Positions 3,288 to 41,697 of a DNA stretch of 64,000 nt are shown in pieces (position 1 is the first letter of the stretch; each line of letters begins with the position of its first letter). Position numbers and translations under genes: made by a program. The notes under the pieces were generated by a model. It was not told the DNA's origin. It was given only the letters and a program-made list of their open reading frames with translations, and ran no database searches. The stretch covers positions 70,192-134,191 of IMG/VR virus record IMGVR_UViG_3300027320_000003; one strand, 5' to 3'. The stretch comes from a virus. Its lineage: Duplodnaviria > Heunggongvirae > Uroviricota > Caudoviricetes.

Positions 3288-4619
3288 ATGACAACAGAGA
3301 ATGATAATGAAACAATTGAGGTAGTTGATCCTATGCCAGGCGAGAAGGTTCCAAAGCTAAAGATGAAGGCGAAGAAGGACACACTGTCTCGCATCATCGG
3401 CAAGATCAATAAGTGCAAGCCACGGAACGATAAGGAAGGCACCATCGAGGTGTCACGCAGCAACCAAAATATACTGTCGTCTGCGAAATTCTTCATTCGC
3501 ACTGGCATCAGATCCTTCGACGACATGACTACTGGTGGAATCCCAGGTGGTCGTATCACCGAGATCTACGGACCTGAGGGGTGCGGTAAAACAGCGCTCT
3601 CAATTCGCGCCTGTGTTAAGGGTCAGACCGGTGAGATCTACGAACGACTGCCGGACAAGACCTTTGTAAAGTATGACAAGCCATATGAGGTCTCGGTTGT
3701 TTACGTCGACAACGAGCAGAGTCTCGACGAAGGTGATCGTATGGTTGTCGATGGAATTAAGGCTGATTTTGCCGTGGTTCGGTGTGACACCGTCGCCCAA
3801 CTCTTTAAGACTATTGACCTTGTGCTAACAGAGGTTATGGCAATCGAGGCTGAAACGAAAATTAAGCAATTCGTAATCGTAGTTGTTGACACCATCGCTA
3901 GTACCTCATCCACCGAGGAAATGACCTCTGAGTGGGGCAAACAGGATTATAGCCGTCAACCTAAACAACTCCGTGAGGGTTTCCGAATCATGATGCGCGA
4001 TATCAACCGTGCACAGATGTTCTTCATTGGTATTAACCAAGTATCAGACAACTTCAACTCCACCGTCAAAAAAAGTCCTTATGCATCACAAGTGCCACAG
4101 GAGGAGGAGTTCAGCAGCTTTGGTGGTAAAGCGCTCAAGTTCTATAGCAGCCTACGAGTCTTTATGGCGCTCGCTGGGCCGTACAAGACCAGCAAAAAGC
4201 AAACTAACCCTGCTGGATTACAATTCGAGTTTTTTGTTAAGAAGAACCGCCAGGGTGTTCCACTCCGTAAGGGTAGAGTGGTCCTATTGTTCAGCGGTGG
4301 ATTCTCCGACACCTACAGCACACTCGAGCACCTCATGCGCCAGAAGCTCATTACGATGGGTTCCGGTGGTGATTATGTCTTTAAACTCAGCTCCGTTGGA
4401 CTAACCGGCGGTAACACCTCACTCGATGACATGGAGGATGGCAAGGGCGACGAGCTTGTTTGTCCAAGTAAAGATGAGTGGCCGGCGTTTTTAGAGAAGC
4501 ACCGTGCAGTGCTAGATAAGTTCTGGGCTGCAACAGTAATTAAAACCCTTGAATCAGACGTACCGATGGATGCGGTGCCAGACGACGAGGACGATATCCT
4601 AGAGGATGAGGAACTATAA
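3288..4619 (+). CDS. RecA/UvsX-family recombinase
   Basis: GGIPGGRITEIYGPEGCGKT matches the RecA segment [20 protein letters not shown] (Walker A). VVVDTIAS is Walker B-like. 443 aa. Confidence 0.75.
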   Translation: MTTENDNETIEVVDPMPGEKVPKLKMKAKKDTLSRIIGKINKCKPRNDKEGTIEVSRSNQNILSSAKFFIRTGIRSFDDMTTGGIPGGRITEIYGPEGCGKTALSIRACVKGQTGEIYERLPDKTFVKYDKPYEVSVVYVDNEQSLDEGDRMVVDGIKADFAVVRCDTVAQLFKTIDLVLTEVMAIEAETKIKQFVIVVVDTIASTSSTEEMTSEWGKQDYSRQPKQLREGFRIMMRDINRAQMFFIGINQVSDNFNSTVKKSPYASQVPQEEEFSSFGGKALKFYSSLRVFMALAGPYKTSKKQTNPAGLQFEFFVKKNRQGVPLRKGRVVLLFSGGFSDTYSTLEHLMRQKLITMGSGGDYVFKLSSVGLTGGNTSLDDMEDGKGDELVCPSKDEWPAFLEKHRAVLDKFWAATVIKTLESDVPMDAVPDDEDDILEDEEL

Positions 4620-5383
4620 TGCGCATACGTGAAGCAACGACAGAGGAGATCACTCTCCTAGACGGAGTAATATCAACCTACCATGGTGATCTTGTACGGT
4701 CTGATGTAAAGGTTAAACTCCTCTTTGTAGGTAGTAAACTCGACGAGAACGGTGATCCTAAAGGACCAGCTCTCAAGATGCACGGAGTAGCGTGCGCAGC
4801 GCAGATTAAGGTACAAAAGAACATTGACAAGTATCTTACCGGGTATCATGCCGTGGTTCGTGTAGACATGGACATGTGGGATGATTATAACGAGAACCGT
4901 CGCAAAGCGCTATTGGATCATGAACTATCGCACCTTGTGGTGGTAAAGGATCAGAATGGCAACGTGAAAATGGATGAGGAAGGCAACATTAAAATCAAAT
5001 GCCGACCAGACGATTACACCATCAACGGTTTCTATCACCTGATTCAACGGCATGCCGGTGATGCGATCGAGGCCCTATCGTTGGGCATCACTGCACAAAA
5101 CGTGCGCCAGGTTGCTCCGAATGCAGCCCAAGCGATATTTAGTGGAACAAGCACAATTGGAACTGGATCAGCTGGGCCACAGGGACGAACCGGACCGGTT
5201 GGATCCTCAGGCGCTCCTATTAACGCCGCGGCCACAACTGCCTCATACACTGAGACTGTGGCTACCGCCGGTTCGCCTATGTGGCAAGCGCTTGCCGGTA
5301 TTCCAACCACACGGGTTTCTGGCACTGCCACGGCGCCAGTTACTCCACGAATTTCGCTCCCATCGACACTGAGCCAACAATAA
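4619..5383 (+). CDS. hypothetical protein with HExxH motif and disordered C-terminal tail
   Basis: LLDHELSHL contains HExxH. The C-terminal tail carries GSPMWQALAGIPT, a motif shared with the ORF at 26871-27284. Confidence 0.4.
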   Translation: MRIREATTEEITLLDGVISTYHGDLVRSDVKVKLLFVGSKLDENGDPKGPALKMHGVACAAQIKVQKNIDKYLTGYHAVVRVDMDMWDDYNENRRKALLDHELSHLVVVKDQNGNVKMDEEGNIKIKCRPDDYTINGFYHLIQRHAGDAIEALSLGITAQNVRQVAPNAAQAIFSGTSTIGTGSAGPQGRTGPVGSSGAPINAAATTASYTETVATAGSPMWQALAGIPTTRVSGTATAPVTPRISLPSTLSQQ

Positions 5384-5384
5384 A

Positions 5385-5416
5385 CTTTCCATTCCCGAGA
5401 ATCGATGTATTCTCCT
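5385..5416 (+). promoter_or_regulatory. conserved promoter-like element, copy 1 (CTTTCCA-N13-ATGTATTCTCCT)
   Basis: Matches the repeated motif. Here it is followed by a 24-nt leader with SD gaaagga before the ATG at 5441. Confidence 0.5.
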
Positions 5417-31172: not shown

Positions 31173-31173
31173 C

Positions 31174-31296
31174 ATGAAGAACGATTTTGAGGCCAATAAA
31201 GTAATGGTGTTGGTGGTATGGAGCGTGTCTACCGTTCTCGTCGGAATGATGATTATTCCGGTTGTCATGATTATTAAGAGAATTTGTAACTGGTAG
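31174..31296 (+). CDS. small membrane peptide (40 aa)
   Basis: Translation MKNDFEANKVMVLVVWSVSTVLVGMMIIPVVMIIKRICNW. Starts 1 nt after the upstream stop. Not in the track. Confidence 0.35.
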   Translation: MKNDFEANKVMVLVVWSVSTVLVGMMIIPVVMIIKRICNW

Positions 31297-31603
31297 AGAT
31301 CGAAACAGGAGAAATCCTGTCATGCCGTATTGCGGCATCTGACGAGATCACAGCAATGGTCAGGGTTAGGTGCATGTCAACGGCGCTGGTGGTCGGAGTC
31401 TCTGAGGCCGCCTTCTATGATAGAGAGACTATGTGTGGAGTTGATCGCCTCTACGATGAATATCGGTGGATTGCAAGCCACAACAAAAGATCCATGCCAC
31501 CGCGGCCAGCGTCCATCTGGCCTAAGCCCCCATAAGAGGTGCGAATTGCTGTGACTGGTGCAACTCCAGTGGCATGACCATTTTAAAATAAACAAAGGAA
31601 AAT

Positions 31604-32413
31604 ATGAATAGATACGAGCGTGGTTCTGGTGAAGTGGCGATGATTGGCATCGCGTTGGTGGTTGTTGTTGGGTTAGTCCTACTCTTTGGTTCATTCTCAG
31701 TGGTGGATCCAGGTTATCGTGGCATTGCAGTAACGATGGGCAGTGTATCAAATGATGTTCGCGGTGAAGGTGTATCGTTTAAGACTCCGCTATTCACCGA
31801 TATCGTAAAAATGTCGATTCGACAGGAGTCGTTCAGCGCTAAGGCGCCATGTTTCTCGTCTGACATGCAGACTATGGGTGTCAATGTGACAGTACTCTAC
31901 CGGCTGTCTGAGGAACGGTTAGTGGATTTATTTAAAAACTATAACCAAAACATTGTCGGTGGAGTTATCGAGCCGAAACTGCAGGAGAGTCTTAAAGAGG
32001 TAACTGCGATGAACACCGCTGAGGGTTGCGTTAAGAACCGTGAGAAGGTTAAGATCGAGACGTTACGCCGATTGAAGGAAAAGGTGGCCAATCTCGCCAC
32101 GGTCGACGACGTGATCATAGTCAACATTGACCTATCGCAGGAACTAGAGAAGGCCATTGAACAGAAGATGGTGCAGGAGCAGGAGGCTGCCAAAGCTAAG
32201 TTTAAACTACAACAGGCCGAGGTTGACGCACAGACAGCGGTGGTGCGAGCTGAGGGTGAAGCTAAGGCTATCCGAGTTCGTAGTGACGCATTGAAAGATG
32301 GTAAAGGAGTGGTTGAACTCATGATCGCGGAGAAATGGAATGGTGTATCTCCTCTCGTGGTTGGTGGTGGAAACGGTGCTAACATTCTTCTTCCTCTTGG
32401 AGACCGTAAATGA
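31604..32413 (+). CDS. SPFH/band-7 (prohibitin/HflKC-like) membrane protein
   Basis: N-terminal TM helix. SPFH core VDPGYRGIAVTMG. A predicted coiled-coil region rich in A/E/K/Q. C-terminal LMIAEKWNG. SD aaaggaaaatATG. Confidence 0.75.
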   Translation: MNRYERGSGEVAMIGIALVVVVGLVLLFGSFSVVDPGYRGIAVTMGSVSNDVRGEGVSFKTPLFTDIVKMSIRQESFSAKAPCFSSDMQTMGVNVTVLYRLSEERLVDLFKNYNQNIVGGVIEPKLQESLKEVTAMNTAEGCVKNREKVKIETLRRLKEKVANLATVDDVIIVNIDLSQELEKAIEQKMVQEQEAAKAKFKLQQAEVDAQTAVVRAEGEAKAIRVRSDALKDGKGVVELMIAEKWNGVSPLVVGGGNGANILLPLGDRK

Positions 32414-32571
32414 ACCTGCGAGGATTTACGTACGTGGAATTGGCGGTGGCGCTAATGATCATGGTTATTCTAGTTGGCGCCGCCTGCGCATTCAGCGAGG
32501 CGCTTGCTAAGAGCAAGAAATTAGACAGCCAGAAAGCAGAGGAAAAGGTCCAGTACAAACCGGCCTATTAA
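32410..32571 (+). CDS. type IV prepilin-like microprotein (53 aa)
   Basis: MNLRG|FTYVELAVALMIMVILVGAA is a class III signal with Gly at -1, Phe at +1 and Glu at +5, followed by a hydrophobic helix. ATG overlaps the SPFH stop (ATGA), which implies translational coupling. Confidence 0.5.
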   Translation: MNLRGFTYVELAVALMIMVILVGAACAFSEALAKSKKLDSQKAEEKVQYKPAY

Positions 32572-32573
32572 CT

Positions 32574-32610
32574 CTTTCCACAGCGCACGGTGCGTGTATT
32601 CTCCTGTATG
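32574..32610 (+). promoter_or_regulatory. conserved promoter-like element, copy 6 (fused to ATG)
   Basis: CTTTCCA-cagcgcacggtgc-GTGTATTCTCCT-gt-ATG. Confidence 0.55.
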
Positions 32611-33078
32611 ACAAAAAGCTATATAAACGACTGGCTGGATAAGCTCCTAATCGAGGCTAAGAGATTAGCCTACGAATATCACGCTGACCAGAGACGAAAC
32701 GACGAAACTCCGTACACGGATCATATTGAAGCCGTGGTAGCTGGAGTTGACGATAGGCCAAGAACCACACCGCTAGATCTAGCGGTTCTCAAGAATCTTC
32801 AGATTGTGGCGTACCTGCATGACATTATAGAGGATACGGAATTCACCGCCTCGGATCTGCGAGCAATCTTTCCATCTGACATATGCGAAGCGGTGATACT
32901 GCTGACGAAGGTTAAAGATGAGAAATGGAATTACGTTACCTACCTCGATGGAATCGCTAAGAATTATCTGGCAAAGCGAGTGAAACTATCTGACCTAAAA
33001 CATAACATGTCTGACCTAAAACCTGGCAACCTGTACGATAAGTACATGTTAACGGTGGCCTACCTAAACGGAAAATAA
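32608..33078 (+). CDS. HD-domain small alarmone hydrolase (RelA/SpoT hydrolase family)
   Basis: H...HD...D pattern. YEYHADQRR, VAYLHDIIEDT (compare AALLHDVVEDT) and KLSDLKHNMSDL (compare KLADRLHNMRTL). Start set at the ATG at 32608; the track start is the GTG inside the motif. Confidence 0.7.
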   Translation: MTKSYINDWLDKLLIEAKRLAYEYHADQRRNDETPYTDHIEAVVAGVDDRPRTTPLDLAVLKNLQIVAYLHDIIEDTEFTASDLRAIFPSDICEAVILLTKVKDEKWNYVTYLDGIAKNYLAKRVKLSDLKHNMSDLKPGNLYDKYMLTVAYLNGK

Positions 33079-33080
33079 CT

Positions 33081-33440
33081 ATGAAATACATCGCAATCTT
33101 GTCACTTCTTCTCCTGTGCTCATGCTTCCCAAACTACTCTGAAGGTAGTCGAGTTGGGACGGTTGTGAAGCTATCTCAAAAGGGACTCGTGTTTAAATCG
33201 TGGGAGGGTGAATTAAGCATGGGATCAATCAAGCGGGTTAACAACGCTGACGGATCTATCACCACCACGAACGTGTTTGAGTTTAGTGTTGAATCGCAGG
33301 AAGTGGTTGATCAACTTCGTGAGGCAATGAAAACCGGCGAACGAGTTGAGCTGGTCTATAGGCAATGGGCCATGGCACCTCCAACCGTCTGTACCTCGTA
33401 CGTTATCACATCCATCAAATCAACCGAGCAGGAAAAATAA
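33081..33440 (+). CDS. putative lipoprotein
   Basis: Signal peptide MKYIAILSLLLLCSC with a lipobox-like LLCSC. Confidence 0.45.
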   Translation: MKYIAILSLLLLCSCFPNYSEGSRVGTVVKLSQKGLVFKSWEGELSMGSIKRVNNADGSITTTNVFEFSVESQEVVDQLREAMKTGERVELVYRQWAMAPPTVCTSYVITSIKSTEQEK

Positions 33441-33715
33441 TGGGAATGTTTGATTACATCATCTGCCATTACAAGCTACCTGACAACCCAACCAACGAGA
33501 CAGAGTTTCAAACGAAGGATTTGATCAACGGTTGTGCTGAATACGCGCTTGATGAACACGGCAATTTCTCCTACCGCGATAGACTTGACCGCCCATTTCA
33601 TGGAAGATTCGAATTCTACACCTACGCAGGACTAGACCCGACAAAATGGCTTCGATACGAGGCCACGATAACCCATGGCCAATTGACTGGCCTAATAAAG
33701 GTAGAGCAAAACTAA
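33440..33715 (+). CDS. hypothetical protein
   Basis: ATG at 33440 overlaps the upstream TAA. The track start at 33365 lies inside the previous gene. Confidence 0.35.
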   Translation: MGMFDYIICHYKLPDNPTNETEFQTKDLINGCAEYALDEHGNFSYRDRLDRPFHGRFEFYTYAGLDPTKWLRYEATITHGQLTGLIKVEQN

Positions 33716-33720
33716 AAATT

Positions 33721-34563
33721 ATGATCGCAAAATTCGAGTTCTTTAAATTTCCGTGCGGTGAATGGCATTTTAAGGTTAATCCCATTGACTATAACAAGAT
33801 GAAGGCTGATACTAATAACCTCATCATTGACGGTCGTGGATTGACGCTTGACCAATTGGCTATGATTAGGCACTACGCCTTAGACCAGCTAAAGTGTGAT
33901 ATTGACTTGTTTCTTCCATACGTTCCATACTCGAGGCAGGATCGCAGAACGTCACCCATTGAGCCATTCACATTGAGAGCATATTGTAACGTCATCAATG
34001 GGTTGAATTTTCGGCAGGTGTTTATTGCCGATCCTCATAGCGATGTGACTCCTGCGCTTCTAAATAGGGTGCGCGTTACATCGGCATTGGATATCGTACT
34101 CGACTTCCATATCTTGCGCAACCGTCATTTTGGACCCAAAAATAACACCGTTGTCATATCTCCTGATGCTGGGTCTATGAAGAAGGTCCACCAGATTGGA
34201 CGAAATCTAGACGTGCCAATCGTCTACTGCGAGAAGAAGCGCGACACGGCGACCGGAGAGTTATCCGGTTGTGTGGTACATGCCGATGACCTCACTGGAA
34301 AAGACGCCGTAATCATCGACGATATTTGCGATGGTGGTGGAACGTTCATCCCAATCGCGAAAGAACTGAAGGCCAAAGGATGCCGCAAAGTAGTTCTCTA
34401 TGTCACGCATGGCGCCTTCACAAAAGGAACGCAGGTTCTATTTGAGAACGGAATCGACGAAATTTTTACCACCAACAGTTTTGACCAAACTGGAAAATAT
34501 GTAAACATCTACGATCTGCTAGATAAGCACGTTGTAGCAACATTAGGAACAGATGAAAAGTAA
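33721..34563 (+). CDS. ribose-phosphate pyrophosphokinase (Prs)-like enzyme; candidate ADPR-pyrophosphate synthetase (Adps) of NARP1
   Basis: PYVPYSRQDRR (compare PYFGYARQDRR), VISPDAGSMKK, VIIDDICDGGGT (PRPP-binding loop) and VTHGAF. The N-terminal region diverges from canonical Prs. Confidence 0.7.
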   Translation: MIAKFEFFKFPCGEWHFKVNPIDYNKMKADTNNLIIDGRGLTLDQLAMIRHYALDQLKCDIDLFLPYVPYSRQDRRTSPIEPFTLRAYCNVINGLNFRQVFIADPHSDVTPALLNRVRVTSALDIVLDFHILRNRHFGPKNNTVVISPDAGSMKKVHQIGRNLDVPIVYCEKKRDTATGELSGCVVHADDLTGKDAVIIDDICDGGGTFIPIAKELKAKGCRKVVLYVTHGAFTKGTQVLFENGIDEIFTTNSFDQTGKYVNIYDLLDKHVVATLGTDEK

Positions 34564-36031
34564 GGCAATTAACCATATCGACTTCTACAAAGCTGGACAC
34601 CTTTTTCAATATCCAGATGGCACTGATCTAGTGTATGCCAACCTCACTCCACGAGGATTGCGCTACCTTCCAAAGATTGGGGGTATCGACAACACTCGAG
34701 TTCGTGTCATTGGTCTGCAATATTTCTGCATGGAATTTCTCATTGCCGATTTCAATCGGTCGTTCTTTGGAGTTCCACTGGATCAAGTGGTTGAGCAATA
34801 TAAACGTCGCATGGATACATCACTGGGTGTAGACTCGGTGTCCGTTGACCACATCATTGCCTTGCATAACCTAGGTTACTTGCCAATTGAGATTATGTCA
34901 TTACCTGAGGGAGTAGCTGTACCAGAGAAGGTGCCTGTGCTCACGATCCATAATACCCTACCGCAGTTCTTCTGGCTGACCAATTACTTGGAAACTGTGC
35001 TTAGCGCATGGTTGTGGAAGTTTATGACCAGCGCCACTATCGCTGATCGGTATCGCCAGATCCTTACGAAGTATGCTAAGGAAACTGGCGGTGACCTAGG
35101 CTTCATCCAATTTCAAGCCCACGACTTCTCATTTCGTGGTATGAGTTGCTCGCAGGATGCAGCGATGAGTGGAGCTGCTCACCTTACCCAGTTTGTTGGT
35201 ACTGACACCGTTGTCGCTATTGACCTACTTGAGGATTACTACGGAGCTGATGCCAGCAAGGAACTCGTTGGTTGCAGCGTACCAGCTACGGAGCATAGTG
35301 TTATGTGCGCCGGTGGTAAGGTAGATGAGCTTGAGACATTTCGTCGATTGATCAACAAGATTTATCCGAAAGGAATTGTGTCTATCGTCTCTGACACTTG
35401 GGATTTTTGGAAGGTGCTCACCGAGTACCTACCGATTCTCAAAGATGAGATTATGGCACGTGATGGTAAGGTCGTGATTCGTCCAGACTCCGGCGATCCA
35501 GTCGATATTATCTGTGGTGATTATACCGCGGCTCCTGGAACTCCGGCATTCAAAGGTGCGATAAAACTCCTGTGGGAGGTTTTCGGTGGAACAGTTAACT
35601 CTAAGGGCTATAAAGTTCTTGATCCACATATTGGTCTAATCTACGGTGACTCCATTACCTTGGAACGTGCCGATGAAATCATGCGACGGCTAAGTCTCAA
35701 CGGATTCGCATCCACAAACGTCGTGTTCGGTGTTGGTTCATACACCTACCAATATCAAACTCGTGACACTCTTGGCTGGGCGGTAAAAGCCACGGCAGCT
35801 AAGGTCAATGGCCAGTATCAAGAGTTGTTTAAGGATCCAATCACTGACTCCGGTCTTAAGAAATCTGCCACCGGATTCTTAAAGGTGGTTAAGGATGGAG
35901 ATAGCTACAAGCTAATCGATAGAGTTAAGTTTGAGGAGATCCATGATGGTGAACTCAAGACGGTGTTTATTGACGGTAGGTTAGTGGTAAAGCATACACT
36001 GGCTGAAATCAGAGCACGGTCAGTGGTATGA
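34553..36031 (+). CDS. nicotinamide phosphoribosyltransferase (Nampt/NadV)-like enzyme; candidate Namat of NARP1
   Basis: 492 aa with the N-terminal DFYKAGH (compare TDSYKxxH) signature of the NAPRTase family. Overlaps the upstream gene by 11 nt. Confidence 0.65.
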   Translation: MKSKAINHIDFYKAGHLFQYPDGTDLVYANLTPRGLRYLPKIGGIDNTRVRVIGLQYFCMEFLIADFNRSFFGVPLDQVVEQYKRRMDTSLGVDSVSVDHIIALHNLGYLPIEIMSLPEGVAVPEKVPVLTIHNTLPQFFWLTNYLETVLSAWLWKFMTSATIADRYRQILTKYAKETGGDLGFIQFQAHDFSFRGMSCSQDAAMSGAAHLTQFVGTDTVVAIDLLEDYYGADASKELVGCSVPATEHSVMCAGGKVDELETFRRLINKIYPKGIVSIVSDTWDFWKVLTEYLPILKDEIMARDGKVVIRPDSGDPVDIICGDYTAAPGTPAFKGAIKLLWEVFGGTVNSKGYKVLDPHIGLIYGDSITLERADEIMRRLSLNGFASTNVVFGVGSYTYQYQTRDTLGWAVKATAAKVNGQYQELFKDPITDSGLKKSATGFLKVVKDGDSYKLIDRVKFEEIHDGELKTVFIDGRLVVKHTLAEIRARSVV

Positions 36032-38202: not shown

Positions 38203-41200
38203 CTAGTGCTTGACAAGTTTCTTCATCCCGGCCGATATGTCATCCCAGTCAACATTTCTCTTAGGAACCTTTACGGCGTCCATATAGTTGTAACCAACTT
38301 CGTGGTCACAGTCAAATGGAACGATACACCACGAGGTGTCAAAACCAGGTACAAGAGTTGATATAACATCAGGCATGTTCTTAAACACCGAGTCACAAAT
38401 CTCGTGCACCTGTGGTAACTCGTCAGTAATGGCGTCGATAACCAAGGAATCATGCACCGTGCATATCAACTTACTCTCGAGCTGGTAGTCCTCCATTAAC
38501 CGTTCGATGGCGATGAGCGAGAACAGCATCATATCCGAGGCAGTTGACTGAATGAGATGGTTATACCCGGATCGCAGGGCCTTATTGATCCTCTGCTTAT
38601 CATCTGAAAATACTTCCTCGAATATCCGGACACGGCCTGTGATACTGACTGCGCAACCGTTATCCTGCACAAATCTCTTGTAATGACCAATGTGCGTCTT
38701 GAGATCTGGATACGCCGCAAAGAAATTCTCAAGCAGTTTCTCACATTCATCTAGCTGGAGATAGACACCAGCCAAAGCGCAGGCGCTCTGAAAACCAAGA
38801 GCACCGCCGCCGTATCCAGTAAGAAAGTTTAGGATTTTACCAAGCTTACGTTTACCAGCCAGTTTCTTAACCTCGTCAGCTTTGCCGTTCTTCTGTAACC
38901 AAATCTGGTGATCGTCGGAGAAGGTTTCGTACGGTATGTTAAACACGAGGCTAGTGGTTTGGCTATGCAGATCCACGTCGTCAACATACGCCTTAACCAT
39001 TGCACTATCACCGCATGCTGCGGCAAGTAGCCGTAATTCAATCTGTGAAAGATCGCTCTGAAATATGCAACCACGTTCCTTAAACCTTGAGCTGTATAGT
39101 CTCTTAATACCACCACTCTCGCGCGGAATTTGCTGCAAGTTTGGATTGGTGTTATGGTTAATGAAACCTTGGGCGACGTAGCTATTATCCTCCTCGACGT
39201 GCATGTCATGAACTGTCTCATACCCAACCATGTCTTTGCTTACGATGGTGTCATGACCGCCGTTGGCGTTAGATGCAATCTTGACAATGTCACCGATGTC
39301 TAGGTCTAGGAGATAGCTCCAACCGCTTGGAGTTAAAAATCTATGACCACTCGTGGCCTTGATGATGTAACCACGGCTCGTTATTACCCGGTACATGGTT
39401 GCCTTTGGTTTAACAACGTGGCACAGGATGCGTTGCCAGTGACCGGTATGGGTCTGAATCCGTGTGTTGCGGTACTTTGCGAGCACCTTGCCTAGATCCT
39501 TAATTCTAACGCGAATGTTTGTGAACCCGTTGACCTGCAGGTTTAAAACTGTGTCAGCTGACACGCAGCACGATAATCTACCACCTCGAGTACCGGTGAG
39601 CTTAAAGCTGGCATGTACGCAACCATCATCCATGAGAAGTTGCTGCGCTGTGCGGTCCTTCTTATCAACACCGGCGATGCTAAGGTTACGCATTGGTCTA
39701 ATATAGGAGCTATAGGCCTTGCGCAACTTGCGGTAATTGATCAATGGGCGCACCTGTGGATAACCAACACTAAGGTTGTTTAGGGTGAATTTGTCCATGG
39801 AAGCAAATTCAATTCGCTGATCCATCGGTATCTGGTCGATTGGAACGCCCTTAAAACGTTTATCACCTGCCTCCGTGAGAGTGTTTACTGGGCATTGGAG
39901 AAGGTTAAAGAGAATAGTTCGTAGCTGTTTCTTATCCTCTACATCAAGTTCCCAATCCGGGTTATTAACCTTCTGTATCTTAACCCATCGATCAATCTGC
40001 GGGTCGCTCTCCTGCAACTCCTTAATGGCATTACGAATTAGATCTGGGGACGCGACTTCCTGGCGGGTTAATTCGTCGACGTCAACGTGCATGCCGCGCG
40101 CCATCATACGGGCTAGAGTATCGCCAGCTGGTCGCATCAAGCAATCATATACTAACTTACGACTCGGCGGAGAGTACAGCCGGTATGCACCACGATTCTC
40201 CGTATGGGCCAATGGTATGCGGTATGTTTTGGCCAGCTCCAAGCGTTTGTCAATGCCTTCGCAGGCCTCCCAACAAACCTCAACGTCACCCATCACATAC
40301 GGTTTAAACGCGGTATCCCAATATTCTTTTGGGCAATTGGCGTAGTGACCACCGCTGTCTGGGTGTAGGAGCTCCGGATATTTGTCGATGAGCATTGTCA
40401 TGCGCTCCTCGTACCCCGCTAGTGTCGGTGCCCAGTCGTAGGCAATAACCTCGAGTCCCATGCTACCGGTCTCCTGTCTCCAAATGTACCGCATGTGCCA
40501 ACTATCCTGCCAAAAAGCACTACAGATCTTCTCAATGTAATCTCTACCTCCAGGCAGTGTGCCAATCACGAACAGGATATCGAAAGTAAGATTATGCCCA
40601 CGCAGCTTACTCGCCGACAGGGCCCGCAAAATAAACGGTGATAGATAGGCAACAAACTCCTTCAACGGGCTACCTTCGTAATCCCATGCCCAACCAACGC
40701 TGCGGTCAGTTCCATCCAGTTCATTCCACCGGAACATAAAATAAACAATCTTGTTTCCGTTTTTAAACGGATGTAGGCCTGTCGTTTCAGTATCAAAACT
40801 AAGCAATGTTCCTGGGTTGTCAATAAGATACTGGCATGATTCTCTTACGGCCTCAGGGTCCTCTGTTAGGATCCACCACGGACGATCATACTCGTAGGTC
40901 TCAACTCCGCCAGCCTTCGCTATCGCCGCTGCCTTAACAAATGCATCATTCCACCGTTTCACGGAGATCTGGTTGGCAAAGGTAAAGACGATCTTTGGGC
41001 TTTGAATCGCCAGAATAGGAATCTGTGTCTCGCCGGATGGACGATCACCGAGTATTGGATGACCACCATCGTAGGTCTTAGAGATCAAAAAATCGTCTGG
41101 CCAACCTCGCCAATTAAGGATACGACCATTCCAGTCCTGCGCGTTGGATTTAATATTCAGCAAACCGAGCACGTTGGAACCAACTGCCATAACAAGGGCT

Positions 41201-41697
41201 GGCGGATGATCGCGAAGCTCCTTCGTAAGAAATAGACGGCAATATCTACCCGCAGACTTAGCCGATTTCTTAAGATCGCCTGGGAAGCAGCGGGTGATAG
41301 GGGCAATGCGGACGGTGTCCTCAAACTTAAGACCTAGCTTCGTAAGGTGCGGCGAGAGCGTCTTTCGTAGGAAACTATTGACACCCTTATCCTGTCCAAT
41401 ACGGCCGTTCTCATCCTCGGATTGGCTGGGACCCTCAGTTATGATAGTGATCAACGGTCTGTCTGGCCCTACTGGCTCAAGATATTTTGACCGACAATTA
41501 GAGGCGAATAGCGCACATTTCCTGCACACTGGATTATCAGGTCCTGGCTTGAAATCAGCACCAGATGCGATTAACTCCTTAGCCTCGCGCTCATATTTCT
41601 GAAACGGAGACTTTTCTTTCTTGACCTTCTCGGTCTTAGCTCGAGCTTTTCGCGGCTTCTTTTCTATCGTGGCGTCTAATTGTAATTCTTCCATCAT
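38203..41697 (-). CDS. family A DNA polymerase with N-terminal UDG-like domain and 3'-5' exonuclease, interrupted by a mini-intein
   Basis: Exonuclease motif FDTETTGL. Pol A motif A DLSQIELR, motif B RKLGKILNFLTGYGGG and motif C VHDSLVID. LTGTRGGRLS-[intein]-TNPNLQQIP corresponds to the conserved RLSS..PNLQNIP segment. The N-terminus has a family-4 UDG-like CxxC plus GEGPG-like ITIITEGPSQSEDENGRIGQ...SFL. Confidence 0.85.
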   Translation of the reverse strand: MMEELQLDATIEKKPRKARAKTEKVKKEKSPFQKYEREAKELIASGADFKPGPDNPVCRKCALFASNCRSKYLEPVGPDRPLITIITEGPSQSEDENGRIGQDKGVNSFLRKTLSPHLTKLGLKFEDTVRIAPITRCFPGDLKKSAKSAGRYCRLFLTKELRDHPPALVMAVGSNVLGLLNIKSNAQDWNGRILNWRGWPDDFLISKTYDGGHPILGDRPSGETQIPILAIQSPKIVFTFANQISVKRWNDAFVKAAAIAKAGGVETYEYDRPWWILTEDPEAVRESCQYLIDNPGTLLSFDTETTGLHPFKNGNKIVYFMFRWNELDGTDRSVGWAWDYEGSPLKEFVAYLSPFILRALSASKLRGHNLTFDILFVIGTLPGGRDYIEKICSAFWQDSWHMRYIWRQETGSMGLEVIAYDWAPTLAGYEERMTMLIDKYPELLHPDSGGHYANCPKEYWDTAFKPYVMGDVEVCWEACEGIDKRLELAKTYRIPLAHTENRGAYRLYSPPSRKLVYDCLMRPAGDTLARMMARGMHVDVDELTRQEVASPDLIRNAIKELQESDPQIDRWVKIQKVNNPDWELDVEDKKQLRTILFNLLQCPVNTLTEAGDKRFKGVPIDQIPMDQRIEFASMDKFTLNNLSVGYPQVRPLINYRKLRKAYSSYIRPMRNLSIAGVDKKDRTAQQLLMDDGCVHASFKLTGTRGGRLSCCVSADTVLNLQVNGFTNIRVRIKDLGKVLAKYRNTRIQTHTGHWQRILCHVVKPKATMYRVITSRGYIIKATSGHRFLTPSGWSYLLDLDIGDIVKIASNANGGHDTIVSKDMVGYETVHDMHVEEDNSYVAQGFINHNTNPNLQQIPRESGGIKRLYSSRFKERGCIFQSDLSQIELRLLAAACGDSAMVKAYVDDVDLHSQTTSLVFNIPYETFSDDHQIWLQKNGKADEVKKLAGKRKLGKILNFLTGYGGGALGFQSACALAGVYLQLDECEKLLENFFAAYPDLKTHIGHYKRFVQDNGCAVSITGRVRIFEEVFSDDKQRINKALRSGYNHLIQSTASDMMLFSLIAIERLMEDYQLESKLICTVHDSLVIDAITDELPQVHEICDSVFKNMPDVISTLVPGFDTSWCIVPFDCDHEVGYNYMDAVKVPKRNVDWDDISAGMKKLVKH
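39151..39567 (-). mobile_element. mini-intein (Hint domain, 139 aa, no endonuclease domain) inside the polymerase gene
   Basis: Begins CVSADTVL (block A). Contains block B THTGH. Ends VAQGFINHN, followed by Thr as the +1 residue. Removing it restores the contiguous Pol A motif GRLSC-TNPNLQQIP. Confidence 0.65.

Follow-up and report, generated by a model that had tools for sequence, protein, structure and literature searches.

A phage prohibitin-type SPFH gene coupled to a microprotein with a prepilin-like signal, and a probably associated OB-fold lipoprotein

A stretch of 64,000 nucleotides from a tailed-virus genome (IMG/VR record IMGVR_UViG_3300027320_000003, positions 70,192 to 134,191; the whole stretch is called the window below) carries four contiguous open reading frames (ORFs) on one strand, which encode in this order an SPFH/Band-7 protein of the prohibitin type, a 53-residue membrane microprotein, a small alarmone hydrolase with an HD domain, and an OB-fold lipoprotein (Table 1). 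We propose that the first two genes (31604-32571) form a translationally coupled inner-membrane module, in which a prohibitin-type SPFH scaffold is produced together with a small bitopic partner. Our confidence, which falls a little short of even, is a joint one: it covers the SPFH module, the class III (prepilin-type) anchoring of the partner and the probable association of the OB-fold lipoprotein, with an ordinary alarmone hydrolase lying between. Each component is of a known kind. What appears undescribed is the association of prohibitin-type SPFH genes with partners that carry a class III signal and an OB-fold, and nothing relevant came from a full-text literature search that combined SPFH with prepilin.

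SPFH proteins are universal membrane organisers, and their roles in bacteria and viruses are poorly understood. To our knowledge, no operon partner has been described for the prohibitin-type clade. The closest SPFH subfamily by sequence comprises the HflK/C-FtsH and the mitochondrial prohibitin/m-AAA assemblies; HflK/C and the mitochondrial prohibitins are cages that face the periplasm or the intermembrane space and regulate a membrane AAA protease. The window differs from the HflK/C case in having a single phage-encoded SPFH gene and not a K/C pair. The prohibitins of prokaryotes are believed to be exposed to the periplasm, and an NfeD partner is not known for SPFH proteins of this type (PMC2636767).

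Judged by profile and identity, the assignment of the first gene product to the prohibitin-type SPFH proteins is solid. It matches Pfam PF01145 (Band_7) with E=2e-29 (103 bits against a cut-off of 23.6) and phrog_200 with E=8e-50, and it is 50-57% identical to proteins annotated as 'prohibitin family' or 'prohibitin 2' from Verrucomicrobiota, Bdellovibrionota and uncultured phages. The membrane anchor is the hydrophobic stretch VAMIGIALVVVVGLVLLFGSF at residues 12-32, and a coiled coil lies C-terminal to the SPFH domain. Such genes are uncommon in phages, phrog_200-type genes being found in 442 of 50,697 GenBank phage records (<1%).

The ATG of the microprotein gene (32410) and the SPFH stop codon TGA share the tetranucleotide ATGA at 32410-32413, and a GGAG Shine-Dalgarno sequence precedes the ATG by 7 nt. 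The ORF is called by public gene callers, JGI naming its product a prepilin-type N-terminal domain protein. Read in frame, its codon usage scores 0.47, compared with 0.42 +/- 0.15 for the genes of the window, and that score was matched by none of 416 off-frame windows of 50 codons. Because it is called publicly, because its codon usage is that of a gene, and because the same slot regularly holds a gene for a small membrane protein in related loci (see below), we conclude that this ORF is a gene. The initial annotation of this DNA had claimed an SPFH/prohibitin gene, a real 53-residue ORF starting across the SPFH stop codon, a class III signal on its product and a lipoprotein gene further downstream. 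The first two claims are confirmed by the evidence given so far, and the other two were borne out as described below.

The microprotein begins MNLRG-FTYVEL (MNLRG-FTYVELAVALMIMVILVGAACAF, the hyphen preceding position +1). It can be seen that every feature of a class III signal sequence is present: a short basic leader of five residues, Gly at -1, Phe at +1 (where Phe or Met is expected), Glu at +5, and a hydrophobic helix of about 20 residues. Against the NCBIfam model TIGR02532 (IV_pilin_GFxxxE) it scores 17.3 bits and passes the cut-off of 16.3 by about 1 bit, while the cut-off of Pfam N_methyl is missed (see below). When all six frames of the 64 kb were scanned for G-[hydrophobic]-xxx-E followed by a hydrophobic run, the microprotein site and one poor match were obtained, and no other credible site. 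There is no globular C-terminal pilin domain in the 53 residues, the helix being followed by a Lys-rich tail of 26 residues. We infer an N-in/C-out orientation, with the helix keeping the protein in the inner membrane. Whether the host prepilin peptidase would clip the leader is a matter on which we are evenly divided; the window itself has no candidate for such a peptidase, no ORF of at least 120 aa having three or more transmembrane (TM) segments.

The position of the microprotein gene was compared with the same position in related loci. Relatives of the SPFH gene were taken from IMG/VR, GTDB genomes and JGI metagenomes, and the gene 3' of each was inspected; 158 loci were evaluable, and a partner was defined as an ORF of at most 130 aa that is strongly hydrophobic and lies immediately 3' of the SPFH gene. 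Such an ORF was present at 96 of the 158 loci. Its start lay within -8 to +10 nt of the SPFH stop at 81 loci and overlapped by 1 or 4 nt at 59, while at 14 further loci a second SPFH paralogue stood in its place. In Bdellovibrionota, Oligoflexia and Verrucomicrobiota/Opitutae the slot is filled by one conserved family of about 65 aa (64-90) with two TM helices and the motif FPxxxxFvExAAxxlRyfWW, next to chromosomal prohibitin-family genes and usually in an ATGA overlap (L012, L025-L101, L103-L181). No Pfam or NCBIfam family describes it, and on sequence grounds it may be an undescribed SPFH4 operon partner. Homology of the window's microprotein to this two-TM family was considered and rejected, the hmmsearch score of 5.6 bits reflecting hydrophobic matching only. 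In phages the partners are diverse single-pass proteins, often built of a TM helix with a Lys-rich tail behind it (L015 and L108, MDKKKVAIVLAATILPGGLIALGLWKAYELLKKKK...; L260; L262), and the 53-residue protein shares this architecture. Thus, with one at 96 of the 158 loci, a small membrane protein coupled to the SPFH gene is what this clade normally has. The slot is conserved in the subfamily, in bacteria as well as in phages, and its occupant changes. The initial annotation had called a pilin-like partner unusual, which needs qualification on two counts: partners that are small, coupled and membrane-bound are the norm in this subfamily, and tiny ORFs with a pilin N-terminus have already been annotated in several lytic phages and discussed in print (PMC12952977).

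The pairing of an SPFH gene with a prepilin-like signal, as claimed for the window, is real and not a one-off. In an unrelated viral contig of 147 kb (L250) an SPFH gene (3859-4818; E=9.5e-42 against the prohibitin profile) is followed by a gene at 4815-5183 in which a prepilin signal is fused to an OB-fold domain. The coupled gene starts MKKKGFTLIELMI... and begins 4 nt before the SPFH stop, that is, in the same ATGA-coupled slot as in the window. At a further locus (L182) the order is a prepilin-like::OB-fold gene, a gene for a 93-aa TM protein and a gene for an SPFH-like lipoprotein of the phrog_200 type; relatives of this SPFH-like protein were not found in IMG/VR. The combination of SPFH protein, class III helix and OB-fold protein has the look of an envelope module that recurs and that recalls SPFH-NfeD.

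The lipoprotein of the window connects with these loci through its own family. Its N-terminus (MKYIAILSLLLLCSC) is a signal peptide with the lipobox LLCS-C, atypical at -2, and the Cys aligns with the canonical LxxC lipoboxes LTAC, LVAC, LSAC and LAGC of the homologues. The homologues share a domain of about 95 residues (YSxGxRxGxVxKxSxKGxxxKxWEGEL...) and differ in their anchors. The domain is an OB-fold; a BFVD structure search returned only uncharacterised proteins and SSB-like OB-folds. The family was found at 67 IMG/VR loci; its members comprise L188-L254, L182, L183, L185-L187 and the window gene (33081-33440). At least 33 of the 67 loci have a lipobox as anchor, others have a plain signal or TM helix, and six have a prepilin-type signal, four of these six signals being in the canonical GFTLIEL form. 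Because the OB-fold elsewhere carries a prepilin signal, once in the coupled slot after an SPFH gene, the OB-fold lipoprotein encoded two genes 3' of the microprotein gene probably belongs to the SPFH system. The family is also, in its own right, an unusual case of interchangeable membrane anchors (lipobox, TM/signal peptide or prepilin-type signal). As a separate observation, in L185 (1-162) one member lies near a fragment of nicotinamide phosphoribosyltransferase (NAMPT) and a NADAR gene, and in L210 (2633-3697) and L211 the OB-fold gene adjoins a gene that, read by eye, resembles a nicotinamidase or isochorismatase.

NfeD is the classical operon partner of SPFH proteins and consists of a membrane anchor or TM segment and a C-terminal OB-fold (PMC4208085). 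The pairs PH1511/PH1510, FloA-NfeD and QmcA-YbbJ, of the stomatin/flotillin type, resemble the window in that an SPFH gene and a small membrane-anchored partner share an operon, and in that an OB-fold is present, in the C-terminal domain of NfeD (PMC4208085) and in the nearby lipoprotein here. They differ as follows. First, the SPFH protein of the window is of the prohibitin type, for which an NfeD partner is not known (PMC2636767). Secondly, NfeD is anchored by TM segments, whereas the anchor in the window is a class III signal or a lipid. Thirdly, the window has one gene for the helix and another for the OB-fold. The NfeD domain (Pfam PF01957) was matched by neither the 53-residue protein nor the lipoprotein in Pfam and NCBIfam searches. 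Since NfeD homology was not detected, the comparison is an analogy and no membership is claimed. By that analogy, NfeD would have its topological mirror in a periplasmic OB-fold tethered at the inner membrane, whether by a class III helix, by a TM helix or by a lipid.

The microprotein might instead act on pili. It would then be a truncated-pilin decoy: the host prepilin peptidase would process the short pilin helix, which would enter or jam the type IV pilus or the pseudopilus of the type II secretion system, or titrate the peptidase PilD, so that pilus-dependent superinfection or secretion is blocked and the adjacency to the SPFH gene is incidental. We regard this as doubtful, if worth serious attention. 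Pilus interference is plausible, and analogues have been published. Prophage-encoded FimU-like minor pilins block phages that bind the pilus tip, a function shown only for the full-length P-FimU (Sztanko et al., Cell Rep 2026, PMC12952977), and truncated PilA-like proteins of about 60 residues occur in six lytic Pseudomonas phages, for which pilus-based anti-superinfection has been proposed (PMC12952977). Comparable tiny ORFs are present in the lytic phages PX29, PhiW-14, 1.081.O and Acibel004 (Table 1), and all four overlap or abut a neighbouring gene. Like the truncated PilA-like proteins, PX29p038 and PhiW-14 gp119, which come from large lytic phages, the microprotein is the product of a very short phage ORF with a prepilin leader and a hydrophobic helix. 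The microprotein fits this truncated-pilin architecture (about 30-110 aa, leader plus helix), as seen in PX29p038, PhiW-14 gp119 and NVP1081O_058, and the canonical class III features and the passed TIGR02532 cut-off speak for a decoy as well. However, sequence homology to these three proteins was not detectable. The lytic-phage ORFs come close to the GFTLIEL consensus and can be recognised as similar to host pilins, whereas the microprotein is an orphan with a motif further from GFTLIEL and has no homology to any pilin at database scale. When the truncated P-PilA family was sought with the N-terminus of P. aeruginosa PilA, only three records were found, apparently bacterial-type pilin genes. 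The overlap with the SPFH gene and the arrangements in L250 and L182 argue that the SPFH link is not incidental, and the lack of a prepilin peptidase candidate in the window also counts against a decoy.

A second possibility is that the resemblance to GFxxxE is fortuitous and meaningless, the microprotein being a generic single-pass SPFH partner like those of L015, L108, L260 and L262. It must be weighed with the findings that speak against the class III module which we propose. The G-xxxx-E motif was found in none of the 96 small partners of the prohibitin-subfamily sample, and an SPFH gene was found near only 2 of 72 other OB-fold loci, although in both as an immediate neighbour; the association of SPFH with class III signals therefore rests on three loci. 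By a rough estimate, two such neighbours in 72 still exceed chance, given that fewer than 1% of GenBank phage records have a phrog_200-type gene. No SPFH gene stood beside any of the four short phage pilin-N-terminus ORFs examined. The microprotein missed the cut-off of Pfam N_methyl (PF07963; 17.5 bits against 21.2). Finally, no relatives were found by tblastn against GenBank phages or, beyond the protein itself, by a word-index search of 5.8 billion proteins, a pattern scan of IMG/VR and an exhaustive HMMER comparison with 1.84 billion representatives; the sequence and its motif thus have no comparative or evolutionary support. That phage SPFH partners without the motif have the same architecture, that the score lies below the Pfam cut-off and just 1 bit above that of NCBIfam, and that the microprotein is a sequence orphan would all agree with a chance resemblance. 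We nevertheless think it unlikely. The sequence G-F-T-x-x-E-L after a basic leader of five residues is specific, occurring at a single site when the 64 kb are read in all six frames; an acidic side chain at the fifth position of a membrane helix is otherwise unfavourable; and textbook prepilin signals recur in the same slot in L250 and among the homologues of the neighbouring lipoprotein.

The initial annotation had further described all four genes as one cassette for host takeover or anti-defence, with an alarmone hydrolase in third place and a conserved promoter element. The hydrolase assignment and the conserved element were upheld, and the single functional cassette was not. As to the hydrolase, the protein matches TIGR00691 (spoT_relA) with E=1e-9 over model positions 3-122 and phrog_990 with E=2e-35, and scores 20.0 bits against Pfam HD_4, below the cut-off of 27.2. 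The best PDB match is Aph1 (7SMG, E=7e-9), and Rel hydrolase domains and Mesh1 are matched as well. The catalytic motifs YH..QRR..PY..H, LHDIIEDT and KLSDLKHNM (D..HN) are intact, there is no synthetase domain, and the start is most likely the ATG at 32608, not the GTG at 32590. Gene 220 of Salmonella phage PVP-SE1, which we take to be the small alarmone hydrolase (SAH) assayed in the toxSAS study cited below, gives the best match in GenBank phages, with 36% identity across 89% of the query; relatives were found in 402 GenBank phage records. The protein would thus be a hydrolase-only RelA/SpoT relative, of the kind shown to neutralise toxSAS (PMC7229694). The PVP-SE1 enzyme neutralises every toxSAS toxin tried (PMC7229694), and the phage SAHs (PbcSpo/PaSpo, Salmonella phages PVP-SE1 and SSU5; Jimmy et al. 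2020, PMC7229694) are likewise stand-alone RelA/SpoT hydrolase domains of about 150 aa. By sequence, the gene is an ordinary member of this known counter-defence class.

Aph1, also phage-borne and similar in size, has the signature residues D24, R96, D116, R119, K133 and Y134 (PMC10083569). In the HMMER alignment to 7SMG the window protein differs from it by having Gly for R96, Ser for D116 and Lys for R119, and Rel-like Q-R-R where Aph1 has D24-K25. An Aph1-type specificity for (p)ppApp was rejected, and, since the signature is not kept, a broad (p)ppGpp/(p)ppApp hydrolase would be the better guess.

The promoter-like element lies between the 53-residue ORF and the hydrolase gene. Seven plus-strand copies are present in the window, most of them 3-4 nt 5' of an ATG; plus-strand sites of CTTTCCA(C/A)-N12-14-GTGTATTCTCC end at 5415, 21601, 30134, 32604, 36414, 58692 and 59898. 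Compared with shuffled controls, the 19-nt core was found 6 times (0.13 expected) and an 11-mer 10 times (about 1 expected). The bipartite element looks like a phage-specific promoter that would give leaderless or near-leaderless mRNAs. The hydrolase gene was found near none of about 170 other SPFH loci and none of 72 other OB-fold loci. Because it has a promoter-like element of its own and accompanies no other SPFH or OB-fold locus, we consider it an independently expressed neighbour. In favour of one cassette with all four proteins acting together, the genes are contiguous on the same strand without a detected terminator between them, and NAD-salvage genes, typical counter-defence or auxiliary genes, follow directly. 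The element that separates the microprotein gene from the hydrolase gene, the isolation of the latter from other SPFH and OB-fold loci, and the different downstream genes of the SPFH relatives L001-L003, L010 and L011 make such a cassette very unlikely. A lysis function, with the microprotein as a small holin- or antiholin-like protein (one TM helix and a charged C-terminal tail) and the nearby lipoprotein as o-spanin, is hardly credible, since there is no adjacent endolysin, the lipoprotein is a folded OB-fold whose homologues are anchored in the inner membrane by TM or prepilin helices, and small TM proteins fill the same slot beside chromosomal prohibitin genes in bacteria.

Table 1. Positions of the features discussed (positions of the window unless a locus is named)
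Feature	Position	Strand	Remarks
SPFH/Band-7 protein, prokaryotic prohibitin type, 269 aa	31604..32413	+	N-terminal TM helix, SPFH domain, coiled coil
Shine-Dalgarno GGAG	32399..32402	+	7 nt 5' of microprotein ATG, within SPFH coding end
Bitopic microprotein, 53 aa	32410..32571	+	class-III-like N-terminus, ~20 hydrophobic residues, 26-aa Lys-rich tail
Bipartite promoter-like element CTTTCCAC-N12-GTGTATTCTCC	32574..32604	+	ends 3 nt 5' of the hydrolase ATG
Small alarmone hydrolase, stand-alone RelA/SpoT-type HD domain, 156 aa	32608..33078	+	TIGR00691, phrog_990, PDB matches
OB-fold lipoprotein, phage-borne family with variable membrane anchor	33081..33440	+	lipobox Cys, homologues
91-aa ORF	33440-33715		start at lipoprotein stop (TAATG); only family match is weak phrog_1615
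Phosphoribosyl pyrophosphate (PRPP) synthetase and nicotinamide phosphoribosyltransferase (NAD salvage)	33721-34563 and 34553-36031		just 3' of lipoprotein gene
OB-fold gene with prepilin-type N-terminus	L194		MKKGFTLIELMIVVAIIGILA
OB-fold gene with prepilin-type N-terminus	L199		MKNKGFTLIELMIVVAIIGILA
OB-fold gene with prepilin-type N-terminus	L250		MKKKGFTLIELMIFVAIIGIV
OB-fold genes with prepilin-type N-terminus	L210 and L211		RGVTLLEVIYTIMIVG
OB-fold gene with prepilin-type N-terminus	L182		KAFTLVELLVVVA; TIGR02532 16.4 bits
Aeromonas phage PX29 p038, 31 aa	L256 2501-2596		near-consensus prepilin leader and helix
Delftia phage PhiW-14 gp119, 44 aa	L258 2489-2623		near-consensus prepilin leader and helix
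Vibrio phage 1.081.O gene 058 (NVP1081O_058), 82 aa	L257 2501-2749		near-consensus prepilin leader and helix
Acinetobacter phage Acibel004 gp97, 107 aa	L255 2501-2824		near-consensus prepilin leader and helix

The window belongs to a large phage with densely packed genes, predominantly on the plus strand, and encodes a tail sheath, a tape-measure protein, a UvsX-like recombinase, a DnaB-like helicase, a topoisomerase II and a DNA polymerase A. Its sequence is also present in the metagenome assemblies JGI 3300009026 and Logan SRR5468224, and its proteins are on record in contigs of up to 143,750 bp. When the region was compared with GenBank phages by megablast, no match was obtained, so the phage is without a close cultured relative. 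The PADLOC defence models gave no matches to five proteins of the region. The 91-aa ORF that starts at the lipoprotein stop has a homologous arrangement in the related contig L184, with a protein identity of 89%. Upstream of the SPFH gene, 430 nt (31173-31603) are without a called gene. They hold a hydrophobic ORF of 40 aa (31174-31296, MKNDFEANKVMVLVVWSVSTVLVGMMIIPVVMIIKRICNW) with gene-like codon usage (0.38); the roughly 300 nt after it contain no copy of the conserved promoter-like element, and an Rfam search of the 430 nt gave no match. As a further observation, the DNA polymerase A gene (1164 aa, 38203-41697, minus strand) has a faint precomputed Intein_splicing match in the public gene table and may carry an intein.

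If the SPFH module works as we propose, an oligomer of the SPFH protein would interact physically with one or more membrane-tethered partners facing the periplasm, in an arrangement that mirrors SPFH-NfeD. The module would act on the envelope or on membrane-protein homeostasis during infection, for example through FtsH-type quality control or membrane stabilisation. The hydrolase would degrade alarmones of the (p)ppGpp/(p)ppApp type or act against toxSAS defences, and would lie between the other genes by chance. A more specific scheme, which we hold to be improbable as it stands, is a phage SPFH partner system in which translation of a prohibitin-type scaffold is coupled to that of a protein which the host's prepilin pathway inserts into the inner membrane, and which works with a periplasmic OB-fold; in the window, an ancestral prepilin::OB-fold gene would have been split into the 53-residue helix and the lipid-anchored OB-fold, the promoter and alarmone-hydrolase unit now lying between the two. 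If that were true, the only major SPFH clade without a known partner of the NfeD kind would have one. The tiny pilin-N-terminus ORFs of lytic phages may be membrane anchors or partners rather than, or besides, pilus poisons. Taken together, the conserved partner slot and the anchor-swapping OB-fold family of phages offer concrete, testable entry points to the partners of prohibitin-type SPFH proteins.

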